Shown here in pieces: positions 2,664-28,733 of a stretch of 64,000 nt of DNA. Each line of letters opens with the position of its first letter. Position 1 is the stretch's first letter. A program made the translations under genes and the position numbers. The DNA is from a virus (taxonomy: Duplodnaviria > Caudoviricetes): IMG/VR virus record IMGVR_UViG_3300006903_000002, positions 1,494 to 65,493 of that record. One strand, given 5' to 3'. Below the pieces are notes generated by a model. The model saw only the letters and a program-made list of their open reading frames with translations, made no database searches and was not told the origin of the DNA.

Positions 2664-2995
2664 GTCAACAGCAAGAGATTTGGTTGGGGGAAGCACCAGA
2701 AGAGGGAGCAAAGCGAGATGCAATCCATGTGGCGGTAGCGCCTGCAATCGCGGGTGAGACGTTGTGGCCGGGAGACAAAGTGGGATTCAACCACGATAGG
2801 ACGATGACGACAAACACGAAAGTGTTTGTTGGAGTGGTGGACCCATTTAGCAACAAACTACAAAGGGGTGAGAGGTTTTGGCTTATCCTCTTCCCACAAA
2901 CGGTGCAAAACCTTCGGCACGAGTGGGACCATCCACAATTCCCGCAAGTCGAGGACAAAGAAGAGGAGTATTATGATGGCTGTTCAGGATGTTGA
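2660..2995 (+). CDS. hypothetical phage protein
   Basis: ATGA overlap, SD GGAG, RDAIHVAV...GVVDPF...LRHEWDHP motifs. Confidence 0.7.
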   Translation: MSQQQEIWLGEAPEEGAKRDAIHVAVAPAIAGETLWPGDKVGFNHDRTMTTNTKVFVGVVDPFSNKLQRGERFWLILFPQTVQNLRHEWDHPQFPQVEDKEEEYYDGCSGC

Positions 2996-3844
2996 CCTAG
3001 TAGAGAGGCTACGGCTATATGCGGCGGTAAGTCCAATGCCTGCGGCTACGACGATGGAGGAGGCCGCGAAGGAGATTGAAAGGCTTCGAAAACGATTGGA
3101 GCAATTGGAGGAAGACGGTGCCTAAGAAGAGCGTGAAGAAGAAGAAGGCGACAAAAGTCGCATGGTTGACGCTTGCAAAGAGTGGGCGCATTCCGAGTGC
3201 GGACGGAACGTGGATTGCTGCGGAGAGGGTGAAGGATTCGGTTGCACACGATTTCCAGCATGGGTATCACATCAAATGATTGAAATTATTCACGCAGCGA
3301 ACCAACTGACGTGGCCGGGAGCCATCTTCCTCTCCGTCCTGTGTCTTTGTGTTTTGGGTTACTTCGCCTTATTCATTAGGGGTATCTTTTGACTAGGCCG
3401 TTGAACTGGATACTTGTTGCGAGCGCAATCATAGTTGAGTTGGCAACAGGATTAGCGTATTTGTTGCCTACCATTCCCAATACCTACGGTCCTCATCCCA
3501 CCTTGGGCGTTCTTCTCGTGGTGGCAGGACTTGTAGCAATACTTGCGTTGTTAGATGCCTTTTTGGAAGAAACAAAATGAAGAAGCTATTCGAAATGACG
3601 CTTGGGTGGGAAGTGGATAATATGATGCGCATTCGCTCTACCCTTGACCCGCAAGTCATCCAACACGTTGATGGAAGGCATGTCGCGGAAGCAATTGCGA
3701 AGAGTCGGGGGAGTAGGCAGAAGCGGTTTGTTGAAAGATATTTGCAGGGGTTCAGTGGAAGGGAAGTGCAATGACACAAGACATTGTGTTTGCGGGGATT
3801 ATCGTCGTCATTTTAATACGTCTAGTGGTAGCTATAGTTGAGTC

Positions 3845-11542: not shown

Positions 11543-12056
11543 AAGTTTGCCGTCTGTTGGGGTGATTGTGGCGAGGTTCCAAGCACCCCAACTTACAAAC
11601 GGCCATGAAGACTTCATCACGCACGTCATGAAGCACAATGACTATACAATTGTCTTCCTTGGGACATGCCCGGTTGATGAGAGGAATCCGCTGCCCTTTG
11701 CCTTCAGGAGGGCGAGTGTGGAGTCATTCATGAGAGGACTCATCATCCTGCCCTTTGAAGATATGCCAAACGAAGATGAGAAGTGGACAAGGAAGTTGGA
11801 GCAGACAGTTGGCAACATTTTTCCGTTTGACAAATATAACATAACATTCTACGGGGGAAGAGATTCAACCTTCCTGAAGGCATACAAAGAGTTTGGGAAG
11901 TTTAGGCGGGAAGAAGTTGCGGGAGGTATTGAAGTGAGTGCGACGAAGGTGCGGCAAACGATTTTGAAGGACCCTTCATACACTTTGGAATTTCGCGCAG
12001 GCACTATCTATGGCGTGAATCTTGCATTAGGAGGAAAAGATGTTAAGTTCAGATAA
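11517..12056 (+). CDS. NMN adenylyltransferase (NadM/NatV-like cytidylyltransferase fold)
   Basis: VIVARFQ...NGH, RNPLPF, GRDS, SATKVR; SD AAGGAGG; directly upstream of NAMPT. Confidence 0.85.
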   Translation: MSWEDKRIESLPSVGVIVARFQAPQLTNGHEDFITHVMKHNDYTIVFLGTCPVDERNPLPFAFRRASVESFMRGLIILPFEDMPNEDEKWTRKLEQTVGNIFPFDKYNITFYGGRDSTFLKAYKEFGKFRREEVAGGIEVSATKVRQTILKDPSYTLEFRAGTIYGVNLALGGKDVKFR

Positions 12057-13440
12057 CCCCATCCTCAAAACAGACTCCTACAAAGTTAGCCATTACAAGC
12101 AATATCCGCCCCTCACGACGAATGTTTATAGCTACTTTGAGAGTAGAGGGGGCGACTACAAAGAGACAACCTTCTTTGGCCTCCAATACATCATCAAAAA
12201 GCATTTGCTGACTCCCGTGGATGAAGGCCATGTGCACCAAGCGCAGCAGATTGCGAAGGACCATTTCGGCACGGACTTCGTGAACGTGGATGGATGGACG
12301 CGAATCATCAAACATCATGAGGGAAGGTTGCCGCTTTTCATTAAGGCAGTGCCAGAGGGATTGAGTGTGCCGACTGGAAATGTGTTGATGACTGTTGAGA
12401 ACACGGATTCGGAATTGCCGTGGCTTACCAACTATGTCGAAACCATTTTGAGTCAGGTGTGGTATCCCACGACAGTCGCCACCCTCAGTCGGGAGGTGAA
12501 GAAGGTGATTCAACATTATTTGGATTTGACAGGGAATGACCCAAGTGAATTCAAATTGCACGATTTCGGCTACCGTGGGAGCACATCACATGAGAGTGCA
12601 GGCATCGGAGGGGTTGCGCATCTTGTCAACTTCAGGGGCACCGACACACTCTCTTCCATCACCTTCGCGCGGGATTACTACAATTGCAAGATGGGTGGTT
12701 TCAGTATCCCGGCAGCGGAACATTCTACAATTACATCGTGGGGGAAGAAACATGAGATTGACGCCTTCCGTAATATGCTCGAACAGTATCCGAAGGGTCT
12801 TGTGGCGGTTGTTAGCGACTCCTACAATATCTTCGACGCTGCCGACATTAAGTGGGGAGTCGAATTACATGACAAAGTTATGGAGAGGGATGGATGTGTA
12901 GTGATTCGCCCCGACTCAGGTTATCCGCCCCACGTCACCTTGAAGTTGCTTGAAATCCTTGAGAAGCGTTTTGGAGTAACTTACAACAAAAAGGGTTACA
13001 AAGTCCTTGACCCGCATGTGCGCATTATTCAGGGAGACGGCTGTGACCCACAGATGATTAGAGAGATTCTGAAAGTGATGGCCTTCCATTATTGGAGTGC
13101 GGACAACATTGCATTCGGTATGGGGGGCGGGCTACTTCAAAAGGTCAATCGTGACACCTGTAAGTTTGCCTTCAAGTGCTCCTCAGTCATTGTGGACGGG
13201 AAAGAGCGGGATGTGTGGAAGGACCCTATCACAGACCCAAACAAGTGGTCAAAGCGCGGACGACTCGCGCTCATCAACCATGCGCAGCATGGGTATATGA
13301 CGCTTCCTGTGATGGAGTTGCATTCTGAGATTGGAGACGCATACGCGGGAATGCAGGATGTGTTGCACCCGGTTTATAAGAATGGACAGTTGTTGATTGA
13401 TGAGTCACTTGATGTCGTTAGACAGAGGGCACGATTATGA
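12040..13440 (+). CDS. nadV: nicotinamide phosphoribosyltransferase (NAMPT)
   Basis: TDSYKVSH, LHDFGYRG, GTDT, SIPAAEHS, VSDSY, IRPDSG, IIQGDG, FGMGGGLLQ. Confidence 0.97.
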   Translation: MLSSDNPILKTDSYKVSHYKQYPPLTTNVYSYFESRGGDYKETTFFGLQYIIKKHLLTPVDEGHVHQAQQIAKDHFGTDFVNVDGWTRIIKHHEGRLPLFIKAVPEGLSVPTGNVLMTVENTDSELPWLTNYVETILSQVWYPTTVATLSREVKKVIQHYLDLTGNDPSEFKLHDFGYRGSTSHESAGIGGVAHLVNFRGTDTLSSITFARDYYNCKMGGFSIPAAEHSTITSWGKKHEIDAFRNMLEQYPKGLVAVVSDSYNIFDAADIKWGVELHDKVMERDGCVVIRPDSGYPPHVTLKLLEILEKRFGVTYNKKGYKVLDPHVRIIQGDGCDPQMIREILKVMAFHYWSADNIAFGMGGGLLQKVNRDTCKFAFKCSSVIVDGKERDVWKDPITDPNKWSKRGRLALINHAQHGYMTLPVMELHSEIGDAYAGMQDVLHPVYKNGQLLIDESLDVVRQRARL

Positions 13441-13682
13441 GGTTGGATGCAGGAAAGAATGGGGACCCGGTTATTGTTTTGTCGAAGCGCAACCTACAAA
13501 CCCTTCTAATGAAGTTGGAGCGTGAGGGTAGTGCGAGGACGATTGCAAAGCAAATCACAACTTCTAGTGGGATGCAATTTGTGTTATATGTGAGTGCGGA
13601 ACCTGACGACGTTCATTATGCGGGACGCCTGCCGGGAGAGATGCATCCAATTGAAGAGGAGAAATTGAATGCAGATAAGTAA
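13437..13682 (+). CDS. hypothetical protein
   Basis: ATGA overlap; LSKRNL..LL.KL...AEPDDVHY pattern. Confidence 0.7.
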   Translation: MRLDAGKNGDPVIVLSKRNLQTLLMKLEREGSARTIAKQITTSSGMQFVLYVSAEPDDVHYAGRLPGEMHPIEEEKLNADK

Positions 13683-14019
13683 TAGGAGTTGGTTGTTTAG
13701 AATTGCATATTTGTTTAATGACGACTACACTAAAAAGTGTGTCGAACATACAACGTTGTGTGCGTTGTTTTGGAGAACCATCGGAAATATCGTAGCTTGT
13801 GCTCTCGTTGCTACAATAGTGTTCGTGTCGTTGATAACAATTTGGGAACATCTCATGGTGGCTGTTGTGTTATTACTATTTGTAGGTGGTGTGCCTGCCG
13901 TTGTTGTGGGAAGTTTGTGGTTGTTCACACGCATAAGGGGTAGTGGTAGTAGTCCTCTTGTAGAGGCTGCTAGCGGGTTCAAACGCAAGGTGTGCCCAAT
14001 AATTGAGGTAAAGGAGTAG
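13669..14019 (+). CDS. membrane protein
   Basis: Two hydrophobic segments; C-terminal KVCPII. Confidence 0.7.
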   Translation: MQISNRSWLFRIAYLFNDDYTKKCVEHTTLCALFWRTIGNIVACALVATIVFVSLITIWEHLMVAVVLLLFVGGVPAVVVGSLWLFTRIRGSGSSPLVEAASGFKRKVCPIIEVKE

Positions 14020-14023
14020 GAAG

Positions 14024-14518
14024 ATGCGACAATTTTTGAAGGTCCTTAGTGGTTCTATTGTCTTTTTGTTCATTGTTACGTTCATTGTTACTGTGGAGCC
14101 TGTCCGCGCGCAAGCAGGCTGTACCATGCGCCACATCACTCTCGGCCCTCCCGACCAAGGACTGATAGTTCAAGCTGTGCCAAGTGGCGTATCGTGGGAA
14201 ATCTTCTCTCTCGGAACCCTCTATTATGCCTCTTCAGCAGGCAGTGGGAATAGGACTGTCATCCTACGGGCACGTTTGCCAATAGGAGACGTTTATGCCT
14301 TCAGTCCGAATCCATTGAAACCAAGTCCGGGGACGACTGTAGGATTGTCGTGGTCTGCCGGGATGGGACCGGCTATTGCATCTGACGTAGGTGTGGGCGG
14401 TTGGCCCATTGGCCTACAATTGAGTGCGGGTCACATTCTTGAGACGGTTGTAGAGAATCGTCATTTTCTTGATTCGTTTGGCACGTCAATTCTTGTGGTG
14501 CGGGAGTGTCCACAATAA
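14024..14518 (+). CDS. secreted/exported hypothetical protein
   Basis: N-terminal signal-like segment ending VRA-QA; SD AGGAG. Confidence 0.6.
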   Translation: MRQFLKVLSGSIVFLFIVTFIVTVEPVRAQAGCTMRHITLGPPDQGLIVQAVPSGVSWEIFSLGTLYYASSAGSGNRTVILRARLPIGDVYAFSPNPLKPSPGTTVGLSWSAGMGPAIASDVGVGGWPIGLQLSAGHILETVVENRHFLDSFGTSILVVRECPQ

Positions 14519-15549
14519 TGAGCAGTTGGCACACATATCCGACCATCTTCAACCTAGGCCATAGGGCAGTGAAGGACCTTCTCACCGTCCCACATTATAT
14601 TGAGGAGAAGATTGACGGCTCGCAATTTTCCTTCGGTGTCTTCGATTCAGGAGACAAACAAGACGGAAAGCCAGTTTATGAGTTGAGGATTAGGTCAAAA
14701 GGTTGTGTCATGAACGTTGACGCACCCGAAAAGATGTTCTCGAAGGCGGCTGAAAGTGTGAAGGAGAGGTTTCATCTTTTGCATCCCGAGTGGACGTATC
14801 GGGGTGAATATCTTGCTAAACCACATCACAACACACTCGTCTACGACCGCATTCCGAAGGGGCACATCATATTGTTTGATGTGAGCACAAATGAGGAGGA
14901 ATGGCTGAGTCCTCAGGACATGGCAGCAGAGGCTATGAGAATTGGACTAGAGTATGTGCCGTGCCTATATATGGGGGGCCGTGCACAACCATTAGTCAAT
15001 TATGAGAAGATTAGAGAATTACTGAACACCGTAAGTGTGTTGGGTGGGCAAAAAATAGAAGGTATTGTGGTGAAGCAACTTGGTCCACAATACTTGTATG
15101 GCCTCGACCACAAGACGCTCATGGGCAAGTTCGTAAGTGAGCAATTCAAAGAGACTCATGCGGGGGTGTGGAAGGAAGCAAATCCAAATAAAAAGGACAT
15201 CATCGACAAATTGATTGAGGGTCTTGCGACTCCTGCAAGGTGGGCAAAGAGCGTGCAGCACCTTCGAGAGGCAGGACGTTTGGAAAATAGCCCGCGTGAC
15301 ATTAGTATGTTGATTAAAGAGACTCAAGCTGATATTCTAAAAGAAGAGGAAGAGAATATCAAAGACGCCTTATGGAACTACGCGAAGGGGCATGTCATGC
15401 GCGGATGTGTGAGAGGGTTGCCAGAATATTATAAGGAGCTTTTGTTAAAGGAGCAGTTTAATGACAAAGATGCAACAGAATGTAGTGAAGGGACTGGAAA
15501 GAACGAAGAAGTTGCTCAAGACGAAGGGGTGGACGCAGGGGATATATGA
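14518..15549 (+). CDS. RNA ligase (Rnl2-like nucleotidyltransferase)
   Basis: Motif I EEKIDGSQ, motif III RGEY, motif IIIa LFDV, motif IV EGIVVK, motif V KFVSEQFKE. Confidence 0.85.
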   Translation: MSSWHTYPTIFNLGHRAVKDLLTVPHYIEEKIDGSQFSFGVFDSGDKQDGKPVYELRIRSKGCVMNVDAPEKMFSKAAESVKERFHLLHPEWTYRGEYLAKPHHNTLVYDRIPKGHIILFDVSTNEEEWLSPQDMAAEAMRIGLEYVPCLYMGGRAQPLVNYEKIRELLNTVSVLGGQKIEGIVVKQLGPQYLYGLDHKTLMGKFVSEQFKETHAGVWKEANPNKKDIIDKLIEGLATPARWAKSVQHLREAGRLENSPRDISMLIKETQADILKEEEENIKDALWNYAKGHVMRGCVRGLPEYYKELLLKEQFNDKDATECSEGTGKNEEVAQDEGVDAGDI

Positions 15550-15766
15550 GAATCTCGCTGGTGAGCACTGCTTGGTAGGGGCGTTGGAGGAGAGCATTAG
15601 GGAAGGGCGTGTTAGTCATGCCACTTTCGGATGCCTTCAAAAGCTTGTCCCCGAAGGACGTATTATTCACTGGAACGACACAGGTGGTAGGACCAAACGA
15701 CAGGTATTTGCTCTCCTTAATAAGGCAATCAAGTTGGTGAAGAAAGATGCTTCTCTTCTTCGTTAA
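15461..15766 (+). CDS. hypothetical protein (GWTQG...CLVGA family)
   Basis: GWTQG, HCLVGAL, WND...RT. Confidence 0.65.
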   Translation: MTKMQQNVVKGLERTKKLLKTKGWTQGIYENLAGEHCLVGALEESIREGRVSHATFGCLQKLVPEGRIIHWNDTGGRTKRQVFALLNKAIKLVKKDASLLR

Positions 15767-16090
15767 GACAATCAATGGGATTGACTACGACATCGTGTGG
15801 GACGGGACACAGACGCGGAATGGTGGAAGGACGAAGGGAGAGTTGCTTGGGTCCTACGACAGTAGGACGCAGTTTGAGGTTGATGTAAATCGTTTGATGG
15901 CATTTAGAAGGACGTTAATTGAGAGACGTTTGAGGGCAACTTATGACAATTGAGACGCGAGTCGCGTGGATGATGGTTTGTTACTACTGCCTAGGGGCCA
16001 TTCTCGTATCACTTCCGCTACCGCTTTGGCTTATAAGCGGCATTGGTTTTGTATTGGGGTGGTTCGCGGGTGATTTTGCGAGGTTAGCAC

Positions 16091-17026
16091 TTGGCGAATC
16101 GTCTAGAACTGACGTATGGTAAGAGTCAAGCAGGTAAGACTACTTGGTATTTACAACTAGCTGAACACTTCTACACAACAAGAGGGCTAAGGACTCGCGT
16201 CTACTTGGGAGATGGGGGAGGAGAGACGATTGCGAACAGCGGACTCATTGAAGAGGGGGCGGTTGAAGTGTTTCAATTCAACAACCGTGACAATCCCTTC
16301 AGCACCCTGCAATTGTGTTGTGAAGCATATTGGCCGGAAGACATTAGCAACCCCCAATCCAAGCTCATCCAAACGAAAGACTTATCCCCGTATGGGATGT
16401 TTGTGTATGAGGGGTTGAGTGTAGGAAGTGATTATATGATGGGCGACAAGCCGGGAGGACTTTCATATCGTGCAGCGAAAGGGGAAAAAATCGGTCAAGA
16501 TACACCATACGTCGTCAGCGAAGAAGGACTCAAATTCGGCGGAAACCCTCCTAGTCACTTTGGATTTGTCCAACGACGAATTGTTGACCTTATTGAGAGG
16601 ACACGAGGTCTTCAGGTCCCATTCGTTCAGTGGACGGCGCACGAGCGGAAAGCAGAGGACAGTGAATACCAAAAAGGGGTGTTTGAATTTGGCCCTGACG
16701 TTTGTGGACAAGCCCTTACGACTAAGATTGGTGCTTATTTTGGCAACACCATCCACTTACATCAGGTGACGACGAAGAAAAAGAAGAAGGATGCCTTCAC
16801 GCAGAAAGAGGTAGAGATTTTGGTGGTTGAGAGACGTGCCTACACCCGTAGGCATTGTGACCCGGACGCACAAACCTCAATTAAGTATTACGCCAACAAC
16901 AGAATGCCAATGGAGTTTGCTGATGAGATGCCGGAATACATGACTCCACCCAATCCCCTCAAGTTCTACGCTATCCTTGAGAATGCGAAGGGGAAGAAGA
17001 GGATGTTGTTGCAGGGGAGGAAATAG
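16091..17026 (+). CDS. Sak4-like AAA_24 ATPase (single-strand annealing recombinase)
   Basis: Walker A YGKSQAGKT, WTAHE motif; followed by an SSB-like gene. Confidence 0.75.
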   Translation: MANRLELTYGKSQAGKTTWYLQLAEHFYTTRGLRTRVYLGDGGGETIANSGLIEEGAVEVFQFNNRDNPFSTLQLCCEAYWPEDISNPQSKLIQTKDLSPYGMFVYEGLSVGSDYMMGDKPGGLSYRAAKGEKIGQDTPYVVSEEGLKFGGNPPSHFGFVQRRIVDLIERTRGLQVPFVQWTAHERKAEDSEYQKGVFEFGPDVCGQALTTKIGAYFGNTIHLHQVTTKKKKKDAFTQKEVEILVVERRAYTRRHCDPDAQTSIKYYANNRMPMEFADEMPEYMTPPNPLKFYAILENAKGKKRMLLQGRK

Positions 17027-17206
17027 TGATAGTCGTTTACAAGCAAGTTGGGAGTGGATTTCGGATAGAAAGGTGTGATAAGATTGTTTTAGGAAGTGAC
17101 ATTATCACACTGCGGAAGAGAAACGACTTGCGTGCAAATGGATGGGATTCGATTTCGTTGGAGACGAAGGTGTTGGAACAATTTGAAGCAATAGGAGAAA
17201 AAGAAA

Positions 17207-17836
17207 ATGAGTGATTTGAGCGAACTAGAACTGAATGTAGACATAAATGTGGCGAGTCCAGACGACTACATCGACAACACGGCACCACTCTTACCGATAG
17301 GGAGTTACACACTGCGGTTGTTGGATTATGCGTTCGAGCCGTCAAAGACAGAAGGGAAGCCTCCTGCGGTGCTTTTGAAGCAAATTGAAGTGGCAGAAGG
17401 CCCGCTAGCGGGTAGGCGCATTTCATTTCAGCGTGTGTATGCCACACCGTTTACCCGCAAGAATGCGACGACTGGACAGGAAGAGAAGGCAAGTGGGTTG
17501 GCGGACTTTATCCGCAGCGTAGATAGGACGTTCCCAACCGACAACATGACCCTCCCAGATGTGAGGAACTTCCTGAACAAGGTTGTTGACGAACGACTAG
17601 TGTTCCATGCGAAGGCGGACCATGAAGGCTTCGATGCGGACTTCAACAAACACCTTCGTGAACTTGCAGGCATTCCGATGAACGACTATCGTAGTGCGAA
17701 GGCGAAGGAGATTGGGAAGCAAGTCACAATTCGTGGGAAGCAGTTTGAGGGGAAGGGCAGCGTCATCAATCCGCTCAGTGGTAATAAGGTGGAAGCGAGA
17801 GTGAAGCTCACGAACTTCTATCCTAGCAGGGACTAA
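17207..17836 (+). CDS. DUF669-like ssDNA-binding protein
   Basis: PLLPIGSY...SK...EGPLAGRRI pattern next to the Sak4-like ATPase. Confidence 0.65.
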   Translation: MSDLSELELNVDINVASPDDYIDNTAPLLPIGSYTLRLLDYAFEPSKTEGKPPAVLLKQIEVAEGPLAGRRISFQRVYATPFTRKNATTGQEEKASGLADFIRSVDRTFPTDNMTLPDVRNFLNKVVDERLVFHAKADHEGFDADFNKHLRELAGIPMNDYRSAKAKEIGKQVTIRGKQFEGKGSVINPLSGNKVEARVKLTNFYPSRD

Positions 17837-17840
17837 AACG

Positions 17841-17869
17841 GCAGGGGCGACTTGCCCCTGCATTCTTTT
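17841..17869 (+). terminator. intrinsic terminator
   Basis: GCAGGGGC-gactt-GCCCCTGC followed by ATTCTTTT. Confidence 0.75.
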
Positions 17870-17880
17870 GGGAGACAATT

Positions 17881-18096
17881 ATGCACGACCTATTCGAATA
17901 TGGCACGAATCCGCAAGCTGTTTGCGAAGGAATTGCAAACCTGAAGCGTCCTCCTTTGACTGTGGCAGAAAGATTGCAATACAACATTGAGCAGAGTGAG
18001 GCGATGCTCAACAGTATGAAGCGTGCTCAGGAGATTCTCAAAAAGAATCCTGAGATAGAAGAGTTGTTGAACATTCTACGCAATTCAGGGATTTAA
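17881..18096 (+). CDS. hypothetical protein
   Basis: SD GGAG, coiled-coil character. Confidence 0.65.
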   Translation: MHDLFEYGTNPQAVCEGIANLKRPPLTVAERLQYNIEQSEAMLNSMKRAQEILKKNPEIEELLNILRNSGI

Positions 18097-18097
18097 T

Positions 18098-18280
18098 ATG
18101 AAACATGCTCTTCCAAAGATTATTTACATCGTTCGTGAATATGACAAAAACGACAAAAATGCTTCATGGCTGCTGGCATCGGACAATATTGACAATGTGG
18201 ATGATGGCAGTGTTGTTGGGATATATGGGCTGGATGAGGTTAGAAAAGTCAAGTTAACCCGTGAGCTTGTTGGAGAGTAA
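18098..18280 (+). CDS. hypothetical protein; stop codon lies inside tRNA-Pro
   Basis: LPKIIYI...VGIY.L; TAA equals tRNA positions 8-10. Confidence 0.65.
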   Translation: MKHALPKIIYIVREYDKNDKNASWLLASDNIDNVDDGSVVGIYGLDEVRKVKLTRELVGE

Positions 18281-18347
18281 CGGCAGCGGCAAACCACGTT
18301 GTTTTGGAAACAACGAATCGTGGGTTCGAATCCCACCTCTCCAACCA
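18271..18347 (+). tRNA. tRNA-Pro(TGG)
   Basis: TGGAGAG/CTCTCCA-A-CCA; GTTGT TT-TGG-AA ACAAC; GTGGG TTCGAAT CCCAC. Confidence 0.88.
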
Positions 18348-18502
18348 CAAAACAAAAATATGAATACTCCAATCTTAACTTTAGTGCGTGTGCAGTGTAA
18401 GTCTTGTGGACACAAATATAAGGCTCCGAAGGGCACATATTGGCCTATTGCTTGTTTTAAGTGCGGTGGAGATGCAGCACCAAAGAAATGGTTCAAAGAA
18501 AA

Positions 18503-19135
18503 ATGAAAGTCCTTGCAATTAGCGACCTACACGGCTACCTCCCACAAGTAGAAGAGTGTGACCTACTTCTCATCGCAGGCGACTTGTGCCCCGACCATTG
18601 TGGGAGCGGCTGGCCCGACCCACAGGGGCAAAACGACTGGCTCAACAGGAGATTCAAAACGTGGTGGGAAACAGTTCCCACGAAGCAAATTGTAGCTACT
18701 TATGGCAATCATGACTTCTGTGGAGAGGAATTCAACAACTCCAACATCATTGTAGACGGCATTGTCGATACTCCTGCTGGCACCGTTTATGCAACTCCTT
18801 GGAGCGTCAAATTCGGCGTATGGGCGTTCATGAAAACAGATGACGAATTGCGGGCCGTTTACGAGAAAATCCCAACGGGCATCGACATCCTTGTCACGCA
18901 CGGTCCCCCCTTCGGGCATGGGGACAAGACGCATGATGGAGAGCATGTAGGTAGTAAGTCGTTAATGGACACGATTGTGCGAGTGAGGCCGAAGATTGTG
19001 GTTTGTGGTCACATTCATGAGGCATATGGCAAATACCACTTGGGTGACATCCCCGTCTACAATGTGAGTTGTGTGGATTTGCAATACAAACTGGTGCGGG
19101 GAGCAACCTTAATCAAGGAGTTGAGTGATGAGTAA
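18503..19135 (+). CDS. calcineurin-like metallophosphoesterase
   Basis: SDLHG, AGDL, GNHD, THGPP, GHIHE. Confidence 0.93.
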   Translation: MKVLAISDLHGYLPQVEECDLLLIAGDLCPDHCGSGWPDPQGQNDWLNRRFKTWWETVPTKQIVATYGNHDFCGEEFNNSNIIVDGIVDTPAGTVYATPWSVKFGVWAFMKTDDELRAVYEKIPTGIDILVTHGPPFGHGDKTHDGEHVGSKSLMDTIVRVRPKIVVCGHIHEAYGKYHLGDIPVYNVSCVDLQYKLVRGATLIKELSDE

Positions 19136-19877
19136 GTTACACGAATTATTGGCTGTGGAGGGGAATTTGAAGGGTCAAGCGGAGAAAGTGCGGAATGAGT
19201 TGAAAGCAACCTTTCATGGAAAACGTCACTTGTTTGGCGCGAAGGTGGTCACGTTCCATCCGATTGAGGAAGGTAAGCCAAGTGAGACGGAGGAGCAGCT
19301 TGACCTAAACACCACTGTGCCGCAAGAGTTGAAGTGGATTCGAGGCATCATTGGGAATGCCTTAGACGTGAGTTATCAGGTTGCAGAGGGCAACACGAAG
19401 GCAAGGGCAGATATCACGTTAGAAGATGGAACCACTCTGCTAAGTGGGGTTCCTGCAACCGCTTTGCTTGAGCTTGAAAAGAGGGTGAATGAAATTCATG
19501 AGTTGGTCACATCTATTCCGACTCTTGACCCCGCGAAGGGTTTCAAGCAGGACCCAAACAAGGGAAATGATGTATATGTGGCGCGGGACGACACTCGTCA
19601 GAGGACGAAGAAGATTGTGCGGCCCATCGTGTTGTATCCCGCAACCCCTGAGCATCCTGCACAAACACAATTGGTGAGTGAGGATGTTCCAAGCGGACGC
19701 TTGGTGACTCAAGAATGGAGCGGGTTGATTCATCCAGTCGCAAAGGCAGACATGCTTGAGCGTGTTGAAGTCCTTCGTCGTGCGGTGAAGAAGGCCCGCG
19801 CGAAGGCAAACGAAACAGAAGTAAAGGATGTGCAAAGGGTGGGTGATGCGCTTCTCACATACGTCTTTGGAAAATAA
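19128..19877 (+). CDS. conserved phage hypothetical protein (DUF7873-like)
   Basis: KLHELLAVE, VPATALLELEK, IPTLDP, YPATPEHPAQ, WSG, AVKKARAKAN. Confidence 0.75.
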   Translation: MSKLHELLAVEGNLKGQAEKVRNELKATFHGKRHLFGAKVVTFHPIEEGKPSETEEQLDLNTTVPQELKWIRGIIGNALDVSYQVAEGNTKARADITLEDGTTLLSGVPATALLELEKRVNEIHELVTSIPTLDPAKGFKQDPNKGNDVYVARDDTRQRTKKIVRPIVLYPATPEHPAQTQLVSEDVPSGRLVTQEWSGLIHPVAKADMLERVEVLRRAVKKARAKANETEVKDVQRVGDALLTYVFGK

Positions 19878-20044
19878 GGAAGAGTCCTTCAAGTTGGGTG
19901 TGCATCTTGGGCTATTCGGCTTTGCCGTAGCGTGTGGACTCTACAACCTCGGCACATGCCTACATAGCAGGAAAAATGTGAGCGCAGTCATCATCTATGT
20001 TGGGTTGGCTGCCTACGAAGTGTCCCAAATGAACGGTCATTGGA

Positions 20045-20479
20045 GTGCGATGCGTGATAGACTCATTCAAGGGTGAACATGCGTTCCTCTCCAATTTTTA
20101 TCCAACTAAAATTGTTGTTGACGGTATTGTGTATCGTTCTGTTGAACATGCCTATCAAGCTGCTAAAACAACTGACGAGAAGGTTAAAAGGGTCATTCGT
20201 GCGAAGCCTTATGCAAGCGAAGCGAAGAGACTTGGCGATACCGTTCAGAAGCGCGAGGATTGGGACAATATCAAGATTGGAGTGATGAAGGAATTGCTTG
20301 ATTTGAAGTTCGCAGAGGGCACAGAGCTTGCAGAGCAACTTCTTTCGACCGGAGATGAGGAACTTGCTGAGGGAAATTGGTGGGGAGACACTTTTTGGGG
20401 AGTCTGCAAAGGGAAGGGTGAAAACCACCTTGGCAAACTTCTAATGGACCGCAGGAAGGTTCTAAAGAGTCGGCAATAG
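20045..20479 (+). CDS. NADAR family (YbiA/DUF1768) ADP-ribosyl/N-glycosidase
   Basis: FLSNFYP, SVEHAYQAAK, LLSTGDEELAEGNWWGDTFWG, GENHLGKLLM. Confidence 0.95.
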   Translation: MRCVIDSFKGEHAFLSNFYPTKIVVDGIVYRSVEHAYQAAKTTDEKVKRVIRAKPYASEAKRLGDTVQKREDWDNIKIGVMKELLDLKFAEGTELAEQLLSTGDEELAEGNWWGDTFWGVCKGKGENHLGKLLMDRRKVLKSRQ

Positions 20480-20886
20480 GCTGAGGCTCAGACTCAAGCT
20501 CAGACAGTAGGAGTCGTTACCTGCTGATGAGGCTTAGGTTTTTGCCGAAGGCTTAACACACAAGGGCAGCAAATTTGGGATGATTTTAGATTAAATCGTG
20601 CGCGCGGGTTCAAATCCTGCACCCGGCTCCACATTCGAGCGTTAGCTGTTGAGACGTTAAACAGCTTGGCGGACGCAGCGGACAGCAATATTCGCTACCC
20701 TCCCGGCTAACAGGTTCTCCGTTAATGAACCTGAGTTTGCCGAGTTAGCTCAGTGGTAGAGCAGCGACTTTAAGTTCAACTCAAAATCATGCTTCGATTT
20801 GCTTGGAAGTTGTGTGGAAACGGGGCAATAGGTTGTGAATTTATACTTCACAGAAACGTGGCAAACTCGTCAACCTATTGCCCTTT
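20480..20886 (+). ncRNA. circularly permuted tRNA-like ncRNA (Thr-like acceptor, anticodon loop replaced by long stem)
   Basis: 3' half (GCGGG TTCAAAT CCTGC ACCCGGC T CCA, 20604-20631) precedes 5' half (GCCGAGT TA GCTC AGTGGTA GAGC A GCGA, 20739-20767); the flanks pair with each other. Confidence 0.75.
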
Positions 20887-20891
20887 AATAT

Positions 20892-21254
20892 ATGGTTCAA
20901 ACTCCTAGGAGAATAATTGTGGGCGTTAGGCGTGTGATTAATGGCACCCCGCAATTCGACAAAGTCTCTTTATGTGAGAGTTGTAGGAACAGTCAGCGAC
21001 TGAAAGGCGAGCGTTATGAGCATGACATCGTTCATTGTCACGCACTGGACAAACGCATTACATTTAAGGTGATTGAGTGCGACCGTTACGACGATGCAAA
21101 TCATCCAAGTTTGTTTGAGATGAGACTGATTGCGTGGAGGTTTGCGAGCGATTTGAAGGGCAATCCAATCGGTTTCAAAAACCCAAAACAGTTTGCAGAT
21201 TTGAAAAGGGCAGGAAAGGTGGAGGAAAAAGAGGGGGATAATGATGATTACTAG
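20892..21254 (+). CDS. Cys-containing hypothetical protein
   Basis: CESC...HC...EC. Confidence 0.6.
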   Translation: MVQTPRRIIVGVRRVINGTPQFDKVSLCESCRNSQRLKGERYEHDIVHCHALDKRITFKVIECDRYDDANHPSLFEMRLIAWRFASDLKGNPIGFKNPKQFADLKRAGKVEEKEGDNDDY

Positions 21255-21709
21255 AACGTTGACGAAGGTTGAAGTGGTTCCATTGTTGAAGTTCCTTGCA
21301 GAGGCAGGGAAAGAGTCAATAGATGATGTTGACAATGTAGGTGAGTTGCAGGCATTCATGAACGCTTGTATAGAAGGGGTAGAGAAATTGAATATTGTGG
21401 AAGTGGACTTGAATGATGTGCGGAAAGGGATGAAACTGTGAGGCAATTCATTTCCCTCATAATCGCAGGAATCCTCTCCATCCTATTGTTTAGTGCGGTT
21501 GTAAGTGGGCAGGAGAAGCAGCAGGAGAGTGTGAAGAGTTGGACGATTGAGCGATGGACTCCAATCGTCGGCACAGAATTACGCGCGTTTTCAGCTTGAA
21601 AGGTGTGTGCGCATATATTGTGACCACGAGGAGTGTCGATGGAGTTTCATCGTCTGTTGCAGTTGTGAGTAAGTCATATTACCCGCTAATGAAAGATGGA
21701 TGTCAATAA

Positions 21710-22429
21710 ATGACCGATATAACATTCTTGTTAGACAGAAGTGGCTCGATGCAATCCGTCAAAAGTGCGACGATTGAGAGTGTGAACAAGTTCATCGAAG
21801 ACCAACAGAAGGTGGAGGAGGGAGCGACTTTCCAACTCATTCAATTCGACGACCAATATGAACCGCAGGACGCTACCGATTTGAAGGATGCGAAGTTGTT
21901 GGATGGCACTTCATATTTGCCGAGGGGGATGACGGCGTATTTGGATGCTCTCGGTAAGACGATTGCAAACGTGAGGCAGCGGCAGGTTGATGCTCCTTCC
22001 GACAAGGTAATCATTGTGGTTATGACTGATGGTCTTGAGAATGCCTCAAAAGAGTTCAAGCGTGCGGACGTGAAGGAGTCAATTGAGAATATGCAGAACC
22101 TCTTCCAATGGACTTTCATCTTTTTGGGAGCGAACATGGATGCCGTTACGGAGGCAGCGACGATGGGAATTCCAATGACCACATCCATTTCGTATGCGGC
22201 CACGGCGGGAGGGACAGCCTCAGCCACAAGCTCAACATCAAATTTGGTCGCACAGTTACGTTCAACAGGCACGACCGAAGGCTACACGAATGTGATGCGG
22301 AATGAGGCTCTTGGCAAGGAAGCGTGGAGCAATCTTGGGGACAACAATACGTCAACACAAGCCAACGTGCTGACTCCCGAAGAGTTTGCAAAATTGGTGC
22401 AAAATAATGCTAATTCCGGCAAACCCTAG
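21710..22429 (+). CDS. von Willebrand factor A domain protein
   Basis: MIDAS DRSGSM, PRGMTA, TDGLENAS, FLGAN. Confidence 0.92.
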   Translation: MTDITFLLDRSGSMQSVKSATIESVNKFIEDQQKVEEGATFQLIQFDDQYEPQDATDLKDAKLLDGTSYLPRGMTAYLDALGKTIANVRQRQVDAPSDKVIIVVMTDGLENASKEFKRADVKESIENMQNLFQWTFIFLGANMDAVTEAATMGIPMTTSISYAATAGGTASATSSTSNLVAQLRSTGTTEGYTNVMRNEALGKEAWSNLGDNNTSTQANVLTPEEFAKLVQNNANSGKP

Positions 22430-22751
22430 GCAGTTGGCACAGGACTTGCTTCCTCGCAGTCTATGTAATGTGCAAATGACCGCAGTCATTTCCGACAAAC
22501 ACGGGATATTTTCTTGGGGGTGGAATTCCTCGGGTAATGGCGATGGCCTTCATGCGGAGGCCCATGCTATTAGCCGCGCCAACAGGCGACGGCTGAAGGG
22601 GGCGACGATTACCATTGCGGGGGTGAGAAAGGGCCGTGGGAAGGTCATTAGCGCCCCCTGCATGGTATGTTTAGCAATCATCTCTGCCTGTGGGATTAAG
22701 AGTATTGAGTTCCACGATAAGGATGGAATGTGGCACAAATTCAGCAGGTAG
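22407..22751 (+). CDS. zinc-dependent cytidine/dCMP deaminase-fold protein
   Basis: HAE...PCMVC. Confidence 0.85.
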   Translation: MLIPANPRQLAQDLLPRSLCNVQMTAVISDKHGIFSWGWNSSGNGDGLHAEAHAISRANRRRLKGATITIAGVRKGRGKVISAPCMVCLAIISACGIKSIEFHDKDGMWHKFSR

Positions 22752-25979: not shown

Positions 25980-28733
25980 ATGCTCCTCCCACAAACTTGC
26001 GTAGGGTGTCCCCTCTACGACTCCCACAAGAACTTCGTCCCAATGGACGGCAAGATGCTACGAGGGGTGCTCATCGTTGGAGAAGCCCCCGGTGAGTTTG
26101 AGGCGAAGGAAGGGAAGCCTTTCGTAGGTGCGGCAGGCAAACTCCTCGACCACCTCCTGCGACTAGCAGGACTCAATAGAGATGACTTTGCCGTCCACAA
26201 TGTCATCTCTTGTAGACCACCTAACAACGAATTGCGGGGCACCCCTTATGAACGTGAGGCCATCGAGCATTGCAGGCCAAATCTGGACGACACTATCAAA
26301 TCATTACGACCCAAGGTTATTATCGCTCTTGGGAACACACCTCTTGAACGACTTACAGGACGTAGCGGGATTACTCGTTTCAGAGGATACCCGCTTCGTG
26401 GCCCTTTTGACACTTGGGTCATACCCACCTTTCACCCATCCTACCTACTCCCAAGACGCGGACAAAAAAGCACCTCCCATCTGACGCCTGCGGTCATAAG
26501 AGACTTCAAATTAGCTCTTGAGATAGCTGAAAGAGGTTATTCAAGGCCAACTCCTATTTATCTTGAGGACCCTCCCGTCTCTCGTGCGGGGGCATTTTAT
26601 CTTGAGTGGGTAAATGCTGGTTGCCCACCCCTCTCAATCGACATAGAAACGCCCTATAAACTCACTACGCGGGATGAAGAAGGTCTTGACACTCTCGACA
26701 CACAGATTATTAGGACAGGATATTGCTTCAGACCCAATTATGCAATGAGTATTCCGAATACTCCTGAATATGAATCAGTGCATAAGGCTTTCATAGAGAG
26801 GCATAGGGATACTCCTGATGATAAACCCATTCAAAAGATAGTATGGAACGGCTACCACTTCGACATGCCCACAATTCGTGCGGCTACAAACTGGAAGTTG
26901 GGGGGTGAGTGGATTGATGGGATGTGGGCCTTTCACTACCTCCAACCAGATTTGCCGAGGGGACTAGAAAGCGTAGGTTCTTACTACTTCAACCAACCTC
27001 CTTGGAAACATTTGTCGAAAGAAAACCCCGCCCTCTACAATTGCATGGATGCGGATGCCGCACTACAAAATTGGATAGGTATAGAGCGTGGGTTGCGGAT
27101 GAAGGGGCAGTATGAGGGGTTCTTTGAATACCTAGTTGAGCTTGACCCCATCCTTCAGGAAGCAGGCAACAACGGCATTCACATCGACAGGAGGGCGCGG
27201 CGAATTCTTTACAAGAAGTTGAGGAAGGAAGAGAATCGCTTACTGCGGGAAGTTCAACCACTAATTCCGCAAGAGTTGCGTCCTCTGAAGCACTATAAAC
27301 GCTATCCGAAGGTGTGGGACAACAAACGACAAATAATCCCTGTGTTTGTGGAGGGGAGTGAGAAGGTCTGCACGCGCTGTGGCGCATCGGGAGTCACAAA
27401 AGGTGGCCATACGAGTCGGAAGGGCGGGAAGAATGGCATCCCGCTAAATGAGTGTTATAAGGCTGAGATAGTTGTACAAAATGGGAGGGTTTGTGAGTTT
27501 GATGTCGTAATGGACTGGAACCCAAACTCCAGTGACCAACTTATTGCATATTGTAAGCATGTGGGGCATCCCGTTGGGAAGCACCCTAAGACGAAATCTG
27601 AGACTGTAGATGATAATCATTTGGAGGTGTTGATTGAGCAATATGGAGATGAGTTCCCAATTTACAAATTGGTTACAGACATCAGGACAGTTGGGAAGTC
27701 ACTATCAACATATGTTAAAGGTCTACGGCCAGACGAGAGCGGAGTCGTGCGGACCCAATACTCTTATTCTCCTGCCACCGGGAGATTATCTTCAAAAGGT
27801 ATCCAAAGAGGGAGTGACAGGGGAGTTAATATACAAAATATTCCGCATCGGGGAGAGCACCCTTACGCTTCAGACATCAGGAGGATGATAATCCCACCCG
27901 CAGGCTACGTCTTCGTGGAAGCAGACTCATCCGCAATTGAGGCCGTGATGACGGGGCATTTCATGGGAGACGACGAATACATTCGGATGAGTCATGAGGG
28001 GATTCATGACGCATTTGCACTCAAGTCATTGCATAAAGAGAATACTGCTGCAAATAGGAAAGCCTTTAAGGATGCCTCTAAAGTGAATGGAAGTGATGAG
28101 CACATCCTGCGTGATAGGAAGAAGCGGACGGTCCACGGCGTTAGTTATGGGATGGGTCCGAGACTCATGCATATGCAGTATAGAAAGGCATTTCCATCCG
28201 TTAGGGTTGCGGAGAAAGAGATTGACGCCTTCTATGAGTTTGTGCCAAAATTAAAAGAGTGGCATCACAAGACGAGGGTGCAAGCACATGAGACGACATA
28301 CTTACAATTGCCGTTCGGAGGATACAGGCGATACTTCTACGATGTCTTCTCGTATGTGCGTGACAGGCAGGGAAACGTCATCCTCAAGGAGGATGGTAGT
28401 CCGAAGATTAAGTTGGGAGAAGATGGGAAAGCGTGCATCGCTATGTTGCCGCAGGGGAGTGCGGCGATGTTCATGAGGATGAATGCGAAGAACATTGCGA
28501 ATGATATTAGGAAGTCGAAGTTTATGTGGATTCTCCCCGGCAACTACTTAGTTCATGACTCTTATTGCTTGTGTGTCCCCGACAATCCAATAGATGTTGA
28601 AAATGCCGCTGATTTGCTTGAGAAGCACCTGACTCGCCCAATTCCCGAGATGGGTGGCCTGCGGGTTGGGTGTGAGATTAAGGTGGGACATAATTGGGAA
28701 GAAATGGAAACAATCAGAGTGGTGAAGGTATGA
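25980..28733 (+). CDS. family A DNA polymerase with N-terminal family-4 uracil-DNA glycosylase-like domain and 3'-5' exonuclease
   Basis: CVGCPL, VGEAPG..E...G.PFVG.AG, CRPPNN, TFHPS; exonuclease DIET, N..FD, YN..D; ATGRLSS, NIQNIP, motif A EADSSAIE, motif B KRTVHGVSYG, motif C VHDS. Confidence 0.95.
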   Translation: MLLPQTCVGCPLYDSHKNFVPMDGKMLRGVLIVGEAPGEFEAKEGKPFVGAAGKLLDHLLRLAGLNRDDFAVHNVISCRPPNNELRGTPYEREAIEHCRPNLDDTIKSLRPKVIIALGNTPLERLTGRSGITRFRGYPLRGPFDTWVIPTFHPSYLLPRRGQKSTSHLTPAVIRDFKLALEIAERGYSRPTPIYLEDPPVSRAGAFYLEWVNAGCPPLSIDIETPYKLTTRDEEGLDTLDTQIIRTGYCFRPNYAMSIPNTPEYESVHKAFIERHRDTPDDKPIQKIVWNGYHFDMPTIRAATNWKLGGEWIDGMWAFHYLQPDLPRGLESVGSYYFNQPPWKHLSKENPALYNCMDADAALQNWIGIERGLRMKGQYEGFFEYLVELDPILQEAGNNGIHIDRRARRILYKKLRKEENRLLREVQPLIPQELRPLKHYKRYPKVWDNKRQIIPVFVEGSEKVCTRCGASGVTKGGHTSRKGGKNGIPLNECYKAEIVVQNGRVCEFDVVMDWNPNSSDQLIAYCKHVGHPVGKHPKTKSETVDDNHLEVLIEQYGDEFPIYKLVTDIRTVGKSLSTYVKGLRPDESGVVRTQYSYSPATGRLSSKGIQRGSDRGVNIQNIPHRGEHPYASDIRRMIIPPAGYVFVEADSSAIEAVMTGHFMGDDEYIRMSHEGIHDAFALKSLHKENTAANRKAFKDASKVNGSDEHILRDRKKRTVHGVSYGMGPRLMHMQYRKAFPSVRVAEKEIDAFYEFVPKLKEWHHKTRVQAHETTYLQLPFGGYRRYFYDVFSYVRDRQGNVILKEDGSPKIKLGEDGKACIAMLPQGSAAMFMRMNAKNIANDIRKSKFMWILPGNYLVHDSYCLCVPDNPIDVENAADLLEKHLTRPIPEMGGLRVGCEIKVGHNWEEMETIRVVKV

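Follow-up and report, generated by a model that had tools for sequence, protein, structure and literature searches.

What is encoded where the two halves of a tRNA follow one another in the wrong order? This question is raised by positions 20480-20886 of a 64,000-nucleotide (nt) stretch of phage DNA (Caudoviricetes), hereafter called the window, which covers bases 1494-65493 of IMG/VR record IMGVR_UViG_3300006903_000002, a complete virus sequence of 65.5 kb that has direct terminal repeats. A first-pass annotation, made from the letters of the DNA, had read there a circularly permuted, two-piece tRNA-mimic RNA that it put forward as an undescribed system. The analysis reported here identifies the element as one member of a conserved family of phage non-coding RNAs. 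Their core is a circularly permuted tRNA-like fold in which the nucleotides of the elbow and of the Levitt pair are intact and the anticodon loop is missing, and it is closed by a long helix between the two ends of the RNA. The RNA is always encoded downstream of the gene for a protein of the DUF7873 family, on the same strand, and the two are inherited together. The tRNA-like module of YrlA, a bacterial Y RNA, is a core of this kind too.

Results

A family of permuted tRNA-like RNAs linked to DUF7873

Relatives of the DUF7873 protein encoded upstream of the element number 2159 in the protein collection searched (E <=1e-10), and an alignment of 26 of them (A1) retrieved 80 viral loci. A script with four requirements only (T arm, 7-nt strand, complementary strand further downstream, D arm) detected such an element in 74 of these 80 loci, on the same strand as DUF7873 and 100-610 nt past its stop codon. 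The first-pass annotation had suggested that a covariance model be built from homologs. Such a model, R1, was derived from 62 non-redundant short-linker members (alignment A3), the window being left out, and it recognizes the window element at 20588-20780 with 63.2 bits (E 1.8e-18) over its full length (model positions 1-98), the next-best match in the window being a tRNA-tRNA junction with 27.6 bits. The six loci missed by the script score 49.7-80.6 bits, and at E <=1e-9 R1 places an element downstream of DUF7873 and on the same strand in 79 of the 80 viral loci. The single locus missed by R1 (L090) has a linker of about 143 nt, and its element is found by the script.

In species-representative genomes, all of them metagenome bins, R1 matches three DUF7873 loci out of three (53.8-81.8 bits). 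Among cultured phages that encode DUF7873 it matches seven out of eight, namely Rhizobium phage RHph_TM21B (71.0 bits), Vibrio phage D505 (59.3), Klebsiella phage FBKp24 (57.0), Arthrobacter phage Racecar (55.4), Ralstonia phage RSL1 (53.3), Gordonia phage Fryberger (49.0) and Pseudanabaena phage PA-SR01 (36.1), while Microcoleus phage My-WqHQDG gives no match at E <=0.01. Phages of both Proteobacteria and Actinobacteria carry the module, and a cyanophage gives weaker matches. When 50 whole related records were searched, the best R1 match in each was the DUF7873-adjacent element (32.5-94.3 bits); the low scorer is the record of L090 (G059), and the remaining ones reach at least 46 bits. DUF7873 is the sole gene conserved around the RNA (81 of 81 loci), the next real neighbour cluster counting 9.

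Several cultured phages carry further features of interest at this place. A second, weaker permuted tRNA-like element (24.7-40.4 bits) lies directly upstream of the main one in RSL1 (L108:3398-3478), FBKp24 (L109:3371-3431) and Racecar (L115:2811-2901), and these paired elements recall the YrlA/YrlB pair. In FBKp24, the 'tRNA-Sup-TTA' of the record and the 'tRNA-Stop' called by ARAGORN (L109:3513-3597) both take the T arm and the 3' acceptor strand of the permuted element; since the downstream 5' strand pairs at 7 of 7 positions with that acceptor strand, both are probably miscalls. In Vibrio phage D505, a hypothetical coding sequence of 32 codons (L113:2934-3029) overlaps the RNA (R1 match at 2955-3065, 59.3 bits) and is probably not a gene.

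Anatomy of the window element

Reading of the sequence, the pattern script and a coordinate check together reproduced the coordinates of every feature that the first-pass annotation had assigned. The parts of the element and its partner gene are as follows.

19125-19877, + strand: gene for the DUF7873 (PF25283) protein, the conserved genetic partner of the RNA; precedes the NADAR gene (Pfam E 9.8e-67)
20531-20556, + strand: block of conserved sequence that adjoins the closing helix on its 5' side, containing GCCGAAGG; six positions at least 90% conserved in 63 sequences
20557-20587, + strand: closing helix, 5' strands (20557-20563, 20569-20574 and 20580-20587); fold and coordinate check, pairing diagonal of the family
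20596-20603, + strand: 3' strand of the anticodon-like stem (20596-20599) and 4-nt variable loop ending in C48 (20600-20603); R1 alignment
20604-20620, + strand: T arm, a 5-bp stem with one G-U pair and the loop TTCAAAT; script, R1 alignment and coordinate check
20621-20631, + strand: acceptor 3' strand (20621-20627), U73 (20628) and CCA (20629-20631), with the predicted mature 3' end at 20631; script and coordinate check
20632-20738, + strand: hairpin-rich linker of 107 nt, predicted to be removed; fold, alignment and coordinate check
5' of 20739, + strand: predicted RNase P site
20739-20767, + strand: acceptor 5' strand (20739-20745), U8 and A9, D arm (20748-20762), A26, and 5' strand of the anticodon-like stem (20764-20767)
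20768-20816, + strand: internal-loop motif TTTAAGTT (family consensus AUUARGCU-like) and closing helix, 3' strands (20783-20790, 20797-20802 and 20810-20816)
20823-20893, + strand: 13-bp stem (20823-20835/20871-20883) with a large loop, then a run rich in T; likely to be the unit's terminator

The acceptor stem pairs at six of its seven positions, as had been read, the mismatch being A5:C68, and the D arm is canonical. The anticodon-like stem of 4 bp (20764-20767 with 20596-20599) indeed has no loop, and continues into the long helix made of 20580-20587/20783-20790, 20569-20574/20797-20802 and 20557-20563/20810-20816. The 107-nt spacer (20632-20738) and the 13-bp stem that ends the unit were likewise found as annotated; this stem is absent from the output of a simple terminator scan, the loop being longer than the 8 nt to which that scan is limited. 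The flanks of the core form 22 colinear perfect Watson-Crick pairs in helices of at least 6 bp, a number reached by none of 2000 mononucleotide shuffles (mean 2.75, maximum 20), and the closing helix is recovered in the unconstrained minimum free energy fold of 20480-20900 (z = -4.06). Neither ARAGORN nor Rfam reports a tRNA or a tmRNA at the element, even at E <=10. The proposed resemblance to the tRNA-Thr of the phage is real, in that G1-C72, C2-G71, C3-G70, U73 and CCA are common to both, but it carries little weight because acceptor sequences vary freely across the family.

Covariation in the core and in its flanks

A hand-drawn four-way junction was evaluated on A3. In this alignment 96.4% of the cells are paired, versus 63.0% after shuffling, the covariation score is 0.864, versus 0.218, with none of 500 shuffles reaching it, all 20 core pairs of the four helices show changes on both sides, and sliding the strands as a control brings pairing down to 36-47%. 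The T, acceptor and D stems served to pick the sequences, so that their pairing is partly built in. Three features were not used for picking. The anticodon-like stem is 85.8% paired and its four pairs all covary. The Levitt pair 15:48, which is G15:C48 in the window, reads G15:C48 in 69, A15:U48 in 5 and A15:C48 in 2 of 76 members. Finally, the variable loop measures 4 nt in 73 of the 76.

The closing helix varies in length and register among members, and a family-wide pairing diagonal is found at its expected place (54%, versus 37% in the background). Support for a long closing helix across the family is moderate. A hairpin drawn in the conserved 5' block was discarded, as it is 69.1% paired versus 66.2% after shuffling and is unsupported by covariation; inspection by eye revealed no consistent pairing of this block with the AUUARGCU-like loop.

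These data bear on the most trivial interpretation of the locus, namely that two unrelated tRNA remnants, or a chance resemblance, have been mistaken for one RNA. The window is rich in tRNA genes (18 according to ARAGORN), and tRNA-tRNA junctions do give weak R1 matches, the best with 27.6 bits. The element nevertheless obtains 63.2 bits from a model in which the window had no part, the same architecture with covarying stems is present at 80 of 80 viral DUF7873 loci, and the complementarity of the flanks lies above all 2000 shuffles. The R1 score, the covariation and the recurrence at DUF7873 loci rule out this interpretation, to which I attach virtually no probability.

The CCA end and the linker

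N73-CCA is encoded in 66 of 79 non-redundant members (chance expectation, 1 in 64). The discriminator itself is not conserved (C 27, U 25, G 15, A 12), and G1:C72 is present in 54 of the 79. The linker that follows CCA measures 3-107 nt in the alignment (about 143 nt in L090) and is 60% A; immediately before G1 the usual triplet is U-A-U, and 48 of 76 members have U at -1. The enzyme RNase P makes use of RCCA and favours U at position -1. The CCA, the linker and the U(-1) pattern are features of a bacterial pre-tRNA junction.

A published precedent is YrlA of Mycobacterium smegmatis, also a permuted tRNA-like module with a 7-bp acceptor. RNase P cuts this RNA both in vivo and in vitro (PMC4201824); it acquires CCA on its 5' piece and persists as two Rsr-bound pieces, the halves staying together. 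C alone is encoded in M. smegmatis and CA is added, whereas the full CCA is encoded here; moreover, M. smegmatis YrlA is bound by Rsr and encoded upstream of rsr, whereas the element lies downstream of DUF7873 and its processing is predicted. By analogy, the element is probably cut by RNase P and trimmed to its CCA as M. smegmatis YrlA is. RNA ligase genes are present in 11 of 51 whole records and genes for a CCA-adding enzyme in 3 of 51, counts that were made without a control set and are uninformative by themselves; with these figures, the module probably relies on host enzymes. The first-pass annotation also considered the RNA possibly aminoacylated. This is unlikely as a family trait, since the acceptor and the discriminator vary freely and the anticodon is missing, which argues against a common aminoacylation identity.

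RNase P cleavage could also serve a different end. The element might be a cis-acting processing or 3'-end element of the DUF7873 operon mRNA, and not a free RNA: a cut at G1 would leave the mRNA with a tRNA-shaped, CCA-ended 3' cap against 3' exonucleases, the downstream piece completing the fold in trans. The permuted order, which puts the CCA end on the upstream RNA, and the constant same-strand position of the element behind DUF7873 (80 of 80 viral loci) are in keeping with this proposal, and RNase P punctuation is plausible in the 41 of 80 loci that have tRNA genes within about 5 kb. However, in the window the RNA is kept although the NADAR gene intervenes, a predicted promoter is annotated between the gene and the RNAs in the FBKp24 record, and the D arm, the Levitt pair, the closing helix and the 5' block exceed the needs of a cleavage signal. 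I regard a cis-acting role as unlikely, while giving it more credit than any of the other alternatives to a free ribonucleoprotein RNA.

Relationship to YrlA and Ro60

The first-pass annotation named YrlA and permuted tmRNA as the nearest topologies, and YrlA (RF02553) is the closest Rfam family. The Rfam scan that it proposed gave a divided answer. The window (20300-21050) has no YrlA match at E <=10, another scan of the window returning a D-arm fragment of RF02553 alone (10.7 bits), while all six relatives scanned match the family with 32-43 bits (E 3e-6 to 5e-3), less than the gathering score of 69 bits, and in five of them the match spans the whole model. What identified YrlA as the nearest known kind was the match obtained at a locus retrieved through a distant homolog of the von Willebrand A (vWA) protein encoded near the element (L011). 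There, a permuted tRNA-like element, with a 5-nt loop closing its acceptor, matches YrlA with 31.7 bits (E 1e-4), just upstream of a gene for a 543-aa Ro60 (TROVE) protein.

In YrlA, as described by Chen et al. 2014 (PMC4201824), a GNCGAAN0-1G motif near the 5' end is followed by a V region and then by T, 'AS' and D stem-loops, and tRNA-type tertiary pairs are kept, including a covarying 15:48 pair. The element has the same succession of closing stem, variable region, T arm, acceptor-like stem, D arm and closing stem, the same conserved T- and D-loop nucleotides, and the covarying 15:48 pair. It differs by its 7-bp acceptor, its N73-CCA, a 5' block of its own and the AUUARGCU-like internal loop, and whereas YrlA is usually linked to Ro60, the element is always next to DUF7873. 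To my knowledge, bacterial Y-like tRNA mimics have been known solely as Ro60 partners. No earlier description of a DUF7873-linked RNA was found in the literature; the lists of phage YrlA RNAs that supplement Chen et al. 2014 may include members near Ro60.

The likeness to YrlA raises the possibility that the element is an ordinary Ro60-dependent YrlA Y RNA, which would use the Ro60 (Rsr) of the host and tether it to PNPase as in RYPER complexes. The topology and the conserved core nucleotides match those of YrlA (PMC4201824), a phage Ro60 with Y-like RNAs binds host PNPase (PMC12135203), and Ro60, where it is present in related records, is often within about 1.5-15 kb of DUF7873. In addition, GCCGAAGG at 20545-20552 of the window fits GNCGAAN0-1G. 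At this place, however, the relatives read ACCC-R-A-AGG, and GNCGAAN0-1G is found within 140 nt upstream in 6 of 68 members, about 7 being expected by chance, so that the Ro60 motif was rejected as a feature of the family. As the first-pass annotation had noted, Ro60 is absent: the complete 65.5-kb genome has no TROVE match at E <=1, and consequently no same-strand TROVE gene within about 4 kb of the element, as would be expected of YrlA. TROVE genes occur in 6 of the 50 related records and are lacking in the other 44; of the 27 records with a completeness of 90% or more, 3 have one. Six records encode both Ro60 and DUF7873 (G017, G033, G034, G044, G046 and G051, the records of L028, L047, L048, L059, L061 and L068). 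In each of them a separate, lower-scoring element (35-47 bits) lies within about 1.5 kb of the TROVE gene, and the DUF7873-adjacent one scores 70-92 bits; these distinct score ranges indicate that two RNA types coexist, each beside its own protein gene. Together with the lack of a Rfam YrlA match on the window, this makes dependence on Ro60 improbable, and I place it below the cis-acting role. My conclusion is that, although its core is of the YrlA kind, the element is not to be classed with the Ro60-type YrlA RNAs. The term undescribed system holds for one half: the tRNA-like core belongs to a described kind, while the obligatory link to DUF7873, the absence of the Ro60 motif as a family feature and the encoded CCA are new.

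Two further observations concern the vWA homologs. The vWA protein of the window (21710-22429) was tried as the partner of the RNA and rejected: a YrlA-like RNA and Ro60 adjoin 1 of 14 homolog loci (L011), which was judged a coincidence, and TROVE is present in 2 of the 14 records with vWA homologs. In L011 itself, beside the phage Ro60 gene and the YrlA-like RNA, GGCCGA...CGGTTATC hairpin modules, at least four in tandem (L011:6959-7592), weakly match the nematode sbRNA model RF01656 (E 0.007-0.26). The sbRNAs are Y RNA homologs, and these matches suggest an array of extra Ro60-binding RNAs.

Comparison with tmRNA, tRNA and other tRNA mimics

As in two-piece (permuted) tmRNA, the T arm, the acceptor 3' strand and CCA are encoded ahead of the acceptor 5' strand, a long helix replaces the anticodon arm, and the product is, for the element by prediction, in two pieces. 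The element differs by the absence of G3:U70 and of a detected tag reading frame, and by its canonical D stem. An ordinary tRNA (RF00005) is a contiguous cloverleaf with an anticodon loop, whereas here the anticodon-like stem runs into a helix. One could therefore imagine a permuted gene for a translation-active molecule, either a two-piece tmRNA-like rescue RNA or an RNA whose ends are ligated into a continuous tRNA shape, as happens with the permuted tRNA genes of red algae. The gene order of permuted tmRNA, the encoded CCA and a phage RNA ligase gene at 14506-15549 would fit. The first-pass annotation had already set the element apart from tmRNA, correctly: the window has C3:G70 and a D stem, G3:U70 occurs in 1 of 79 family members, and ARAGORN, the Rfam tmRNA models and RF04321 (tmRNA_permuted) find nothing at the element. 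The RNA lacks an anticodon loop, the variation of N73 and of the acceptor pairs leaves no common synthetase identity, and RNA ligase and CCA-adding enzyme are as infrequent as stated above (11 and 3 of 51 records). A translation-active product is very unlikely, and the ribosome-rescue role that had been suggested receives no support.

Three Rfam families of bacterial tRNA mimics treated in a 2026 preprint (RF02924, RF02926 and RF03030) resemble the element in keeping the acceptor, T-arm and elbow half while dropping the anticodon arm; their connectivity is different and they are not permuted. None of the three matches the window or the six relatives, and the word 'phage' is absent from the main text of the preprint.

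Genomic surroundings

The element occupies the gap between the NADAR/YbiA-type gene (20045-20479) and a 120-aa open reading frame (ORF) that matches no family. The ORF listed from the ATG at 20892 more likely starts at the GTG at 20920, 7 nt after an AGGAG box, in which case the RNA unit and the terminator-like stem are wholly intergenic. Around the RNA, tRNA genes are interspersed with a run of genes of metabolism or repair type (12040-22750): NAMPT (12040-13440), RNA ligase (14506-15549), metallophosphoesterase (18461-19135), NADAR (20045-20479), vWA (21710-22429) and cytidine/dCMP deaminase (22386-22751). The whole resembles an auxiliary or counter-defence region. Further downstream, the family A DNA polymerase (25980-28733) has an N-terminal domain of the uracil-DNA-glycosylase superfamily (PF03167, E 4.7e-28). 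Scans of viral contigs with the 120-aa ORF, DUF7873, the DNA polymerase and an exact 28-mer of the RNA revealed no close relatives of the phage, and in a blastn comparison with cultured phages the NADAR gene was the sole part of the window to match.

Discussion

The explanation that I favour, with moderate confidence, is that the element is a conserved phage non-coding RNA, a YrlA-like tRNA mimic with DUF7873 as a new protein partner, which is cut by RNase P, trimmed to CCA and assembled into a ribonucleoprotein (RNP). The RNA would be transcribed with the upstream genes or with a tRNA cluster, the element often lying within tRNA gene clusters. Host RNase P would cut 5' of G1, at 20738/20739, and exonucleases would trim the linker to the encoded CCA, at 20631. 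The resulting tRNA mimic would be nicked and end in CCA, its two pieces being joined by pairing in the acceptor stem and the closing helix, and it would form an RNP with DUF7873, in the place that Ro60 holds for YrlA. The tRNA-shaped module might then act as a handle or a decoy for a host factor that recognizes the tRNA elbow, the acceptor and CCA, candidates being PNPase, as in the complexes of Ro60, Y RNA and PNPase, or a tRNA-directed defence enzyme.

The best working analogy for such an RNP is the phage Ro60-Yrl complex that binds host PNPase. In Thermus phage phiLo, Ro60 occurs with Yrl1 and Yrl2, and the RNP is proposed to hijack the host PNPase (PMC12135203). As here, a phage-encoded Y-like RNA is combined with a phage protein, and phiLo may serve as a model for how the RNP acts. 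It differs in being based on Ro60, with RNAs that were recognized by a CGAA motif; this comparison concerns the systems and not the RNA structures. A more tentative proposal, which I find distinctly less probable than the RNP itself, is that DUF7873 and the RNA constitute a Ro60-independent phage RNP, a second, hitherto undescribed class of tRNA-mimic RNP, whose two-piece look-alike without an anticodon, made by RNase P, captures or decoys a host enzyme (an exoribonuclease such as PNPase, or a tRNA-directed defence toxin).

Besides the Ro60-type motif present in the window, through which this copy may use a Ro60 of its host, several points weigh against the favoured explanation. As regards processing, in 9 of the 35 long-linker members N73-CCA is base-paired with the final part of the linker, which makes the stem longer and closed. 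Cleavage may therefore not be universal, and a closed, YrlA-style stem-loop fits as well as cleavage does. As regards the long helix, the energy of the flank duplex is only moderately below that of shuffles (mean z -1.67; z < -2 in 24 of 76 members), and the cognate flank is the best partner in 6 of 76 members, which makes this test a weak discriminator. The window copy is itself atypical: it ranks 75th of 87 by score, its acceptor has one mismatch and its linker is the longest among the 79 aligned members; its core positions are nevertheless all intact. It is also unusual in having the NADAR gene between DUF7873 and the RNA, which brings the T arm to 727 nt past the DUF7873 stop codon, versus 100-610 nt elsewhere. 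A search of the genome collection with R1 at E <=1e-6 did not return the element of the window, a failure that I think is due to the first-look step of the search, which does not span the 107-nt insert.

The remaining points concern the protein. I infer the binding of the RNA by DUF7873 only from the linkage of the genes. The AlphaFold model of DUF7873, predicted with confidence (pLDDT 87, pTM 0.74), consists of helices and long beta hairpins. Foldseek retrieved nothing from the PDB with this model at E <=0.001, and the best VIA-align hits (Z up to 9.4) are designed helical proteins, nothing standing out among them. The protein has no match in PHROGs, NCBIfam or PADLOC, nor in a sequence profile search of the PDB; the ESM Atlas returned DUF7873 clusters only, and the literature search on DUF7873 found nothing.

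For phage biology, the finding means that the RNA design of the Ro60-linked Y-like mimics recurs with a different, uncharacterised protein family. In existing records the RNA already seems to be miscalled, either as a suppressor tRNA or in the form of small ORFs. The module is present in culturable phages (Gordonia phage Fryberger, Arthrobacter phage Racecar, Rhizobium phage RHph_TM21B, Vibrio phage D505, Ralstonia phage RSL1 and Klebsiella phage FBKp24), and the CCA that nearly all members encode lends itself to a direct test of whether it acts in processing or in target capture. The linkage gives DUF7873 a testable function, and it provides a second, independent system in which to ask what the tRNA-shaped module is for.

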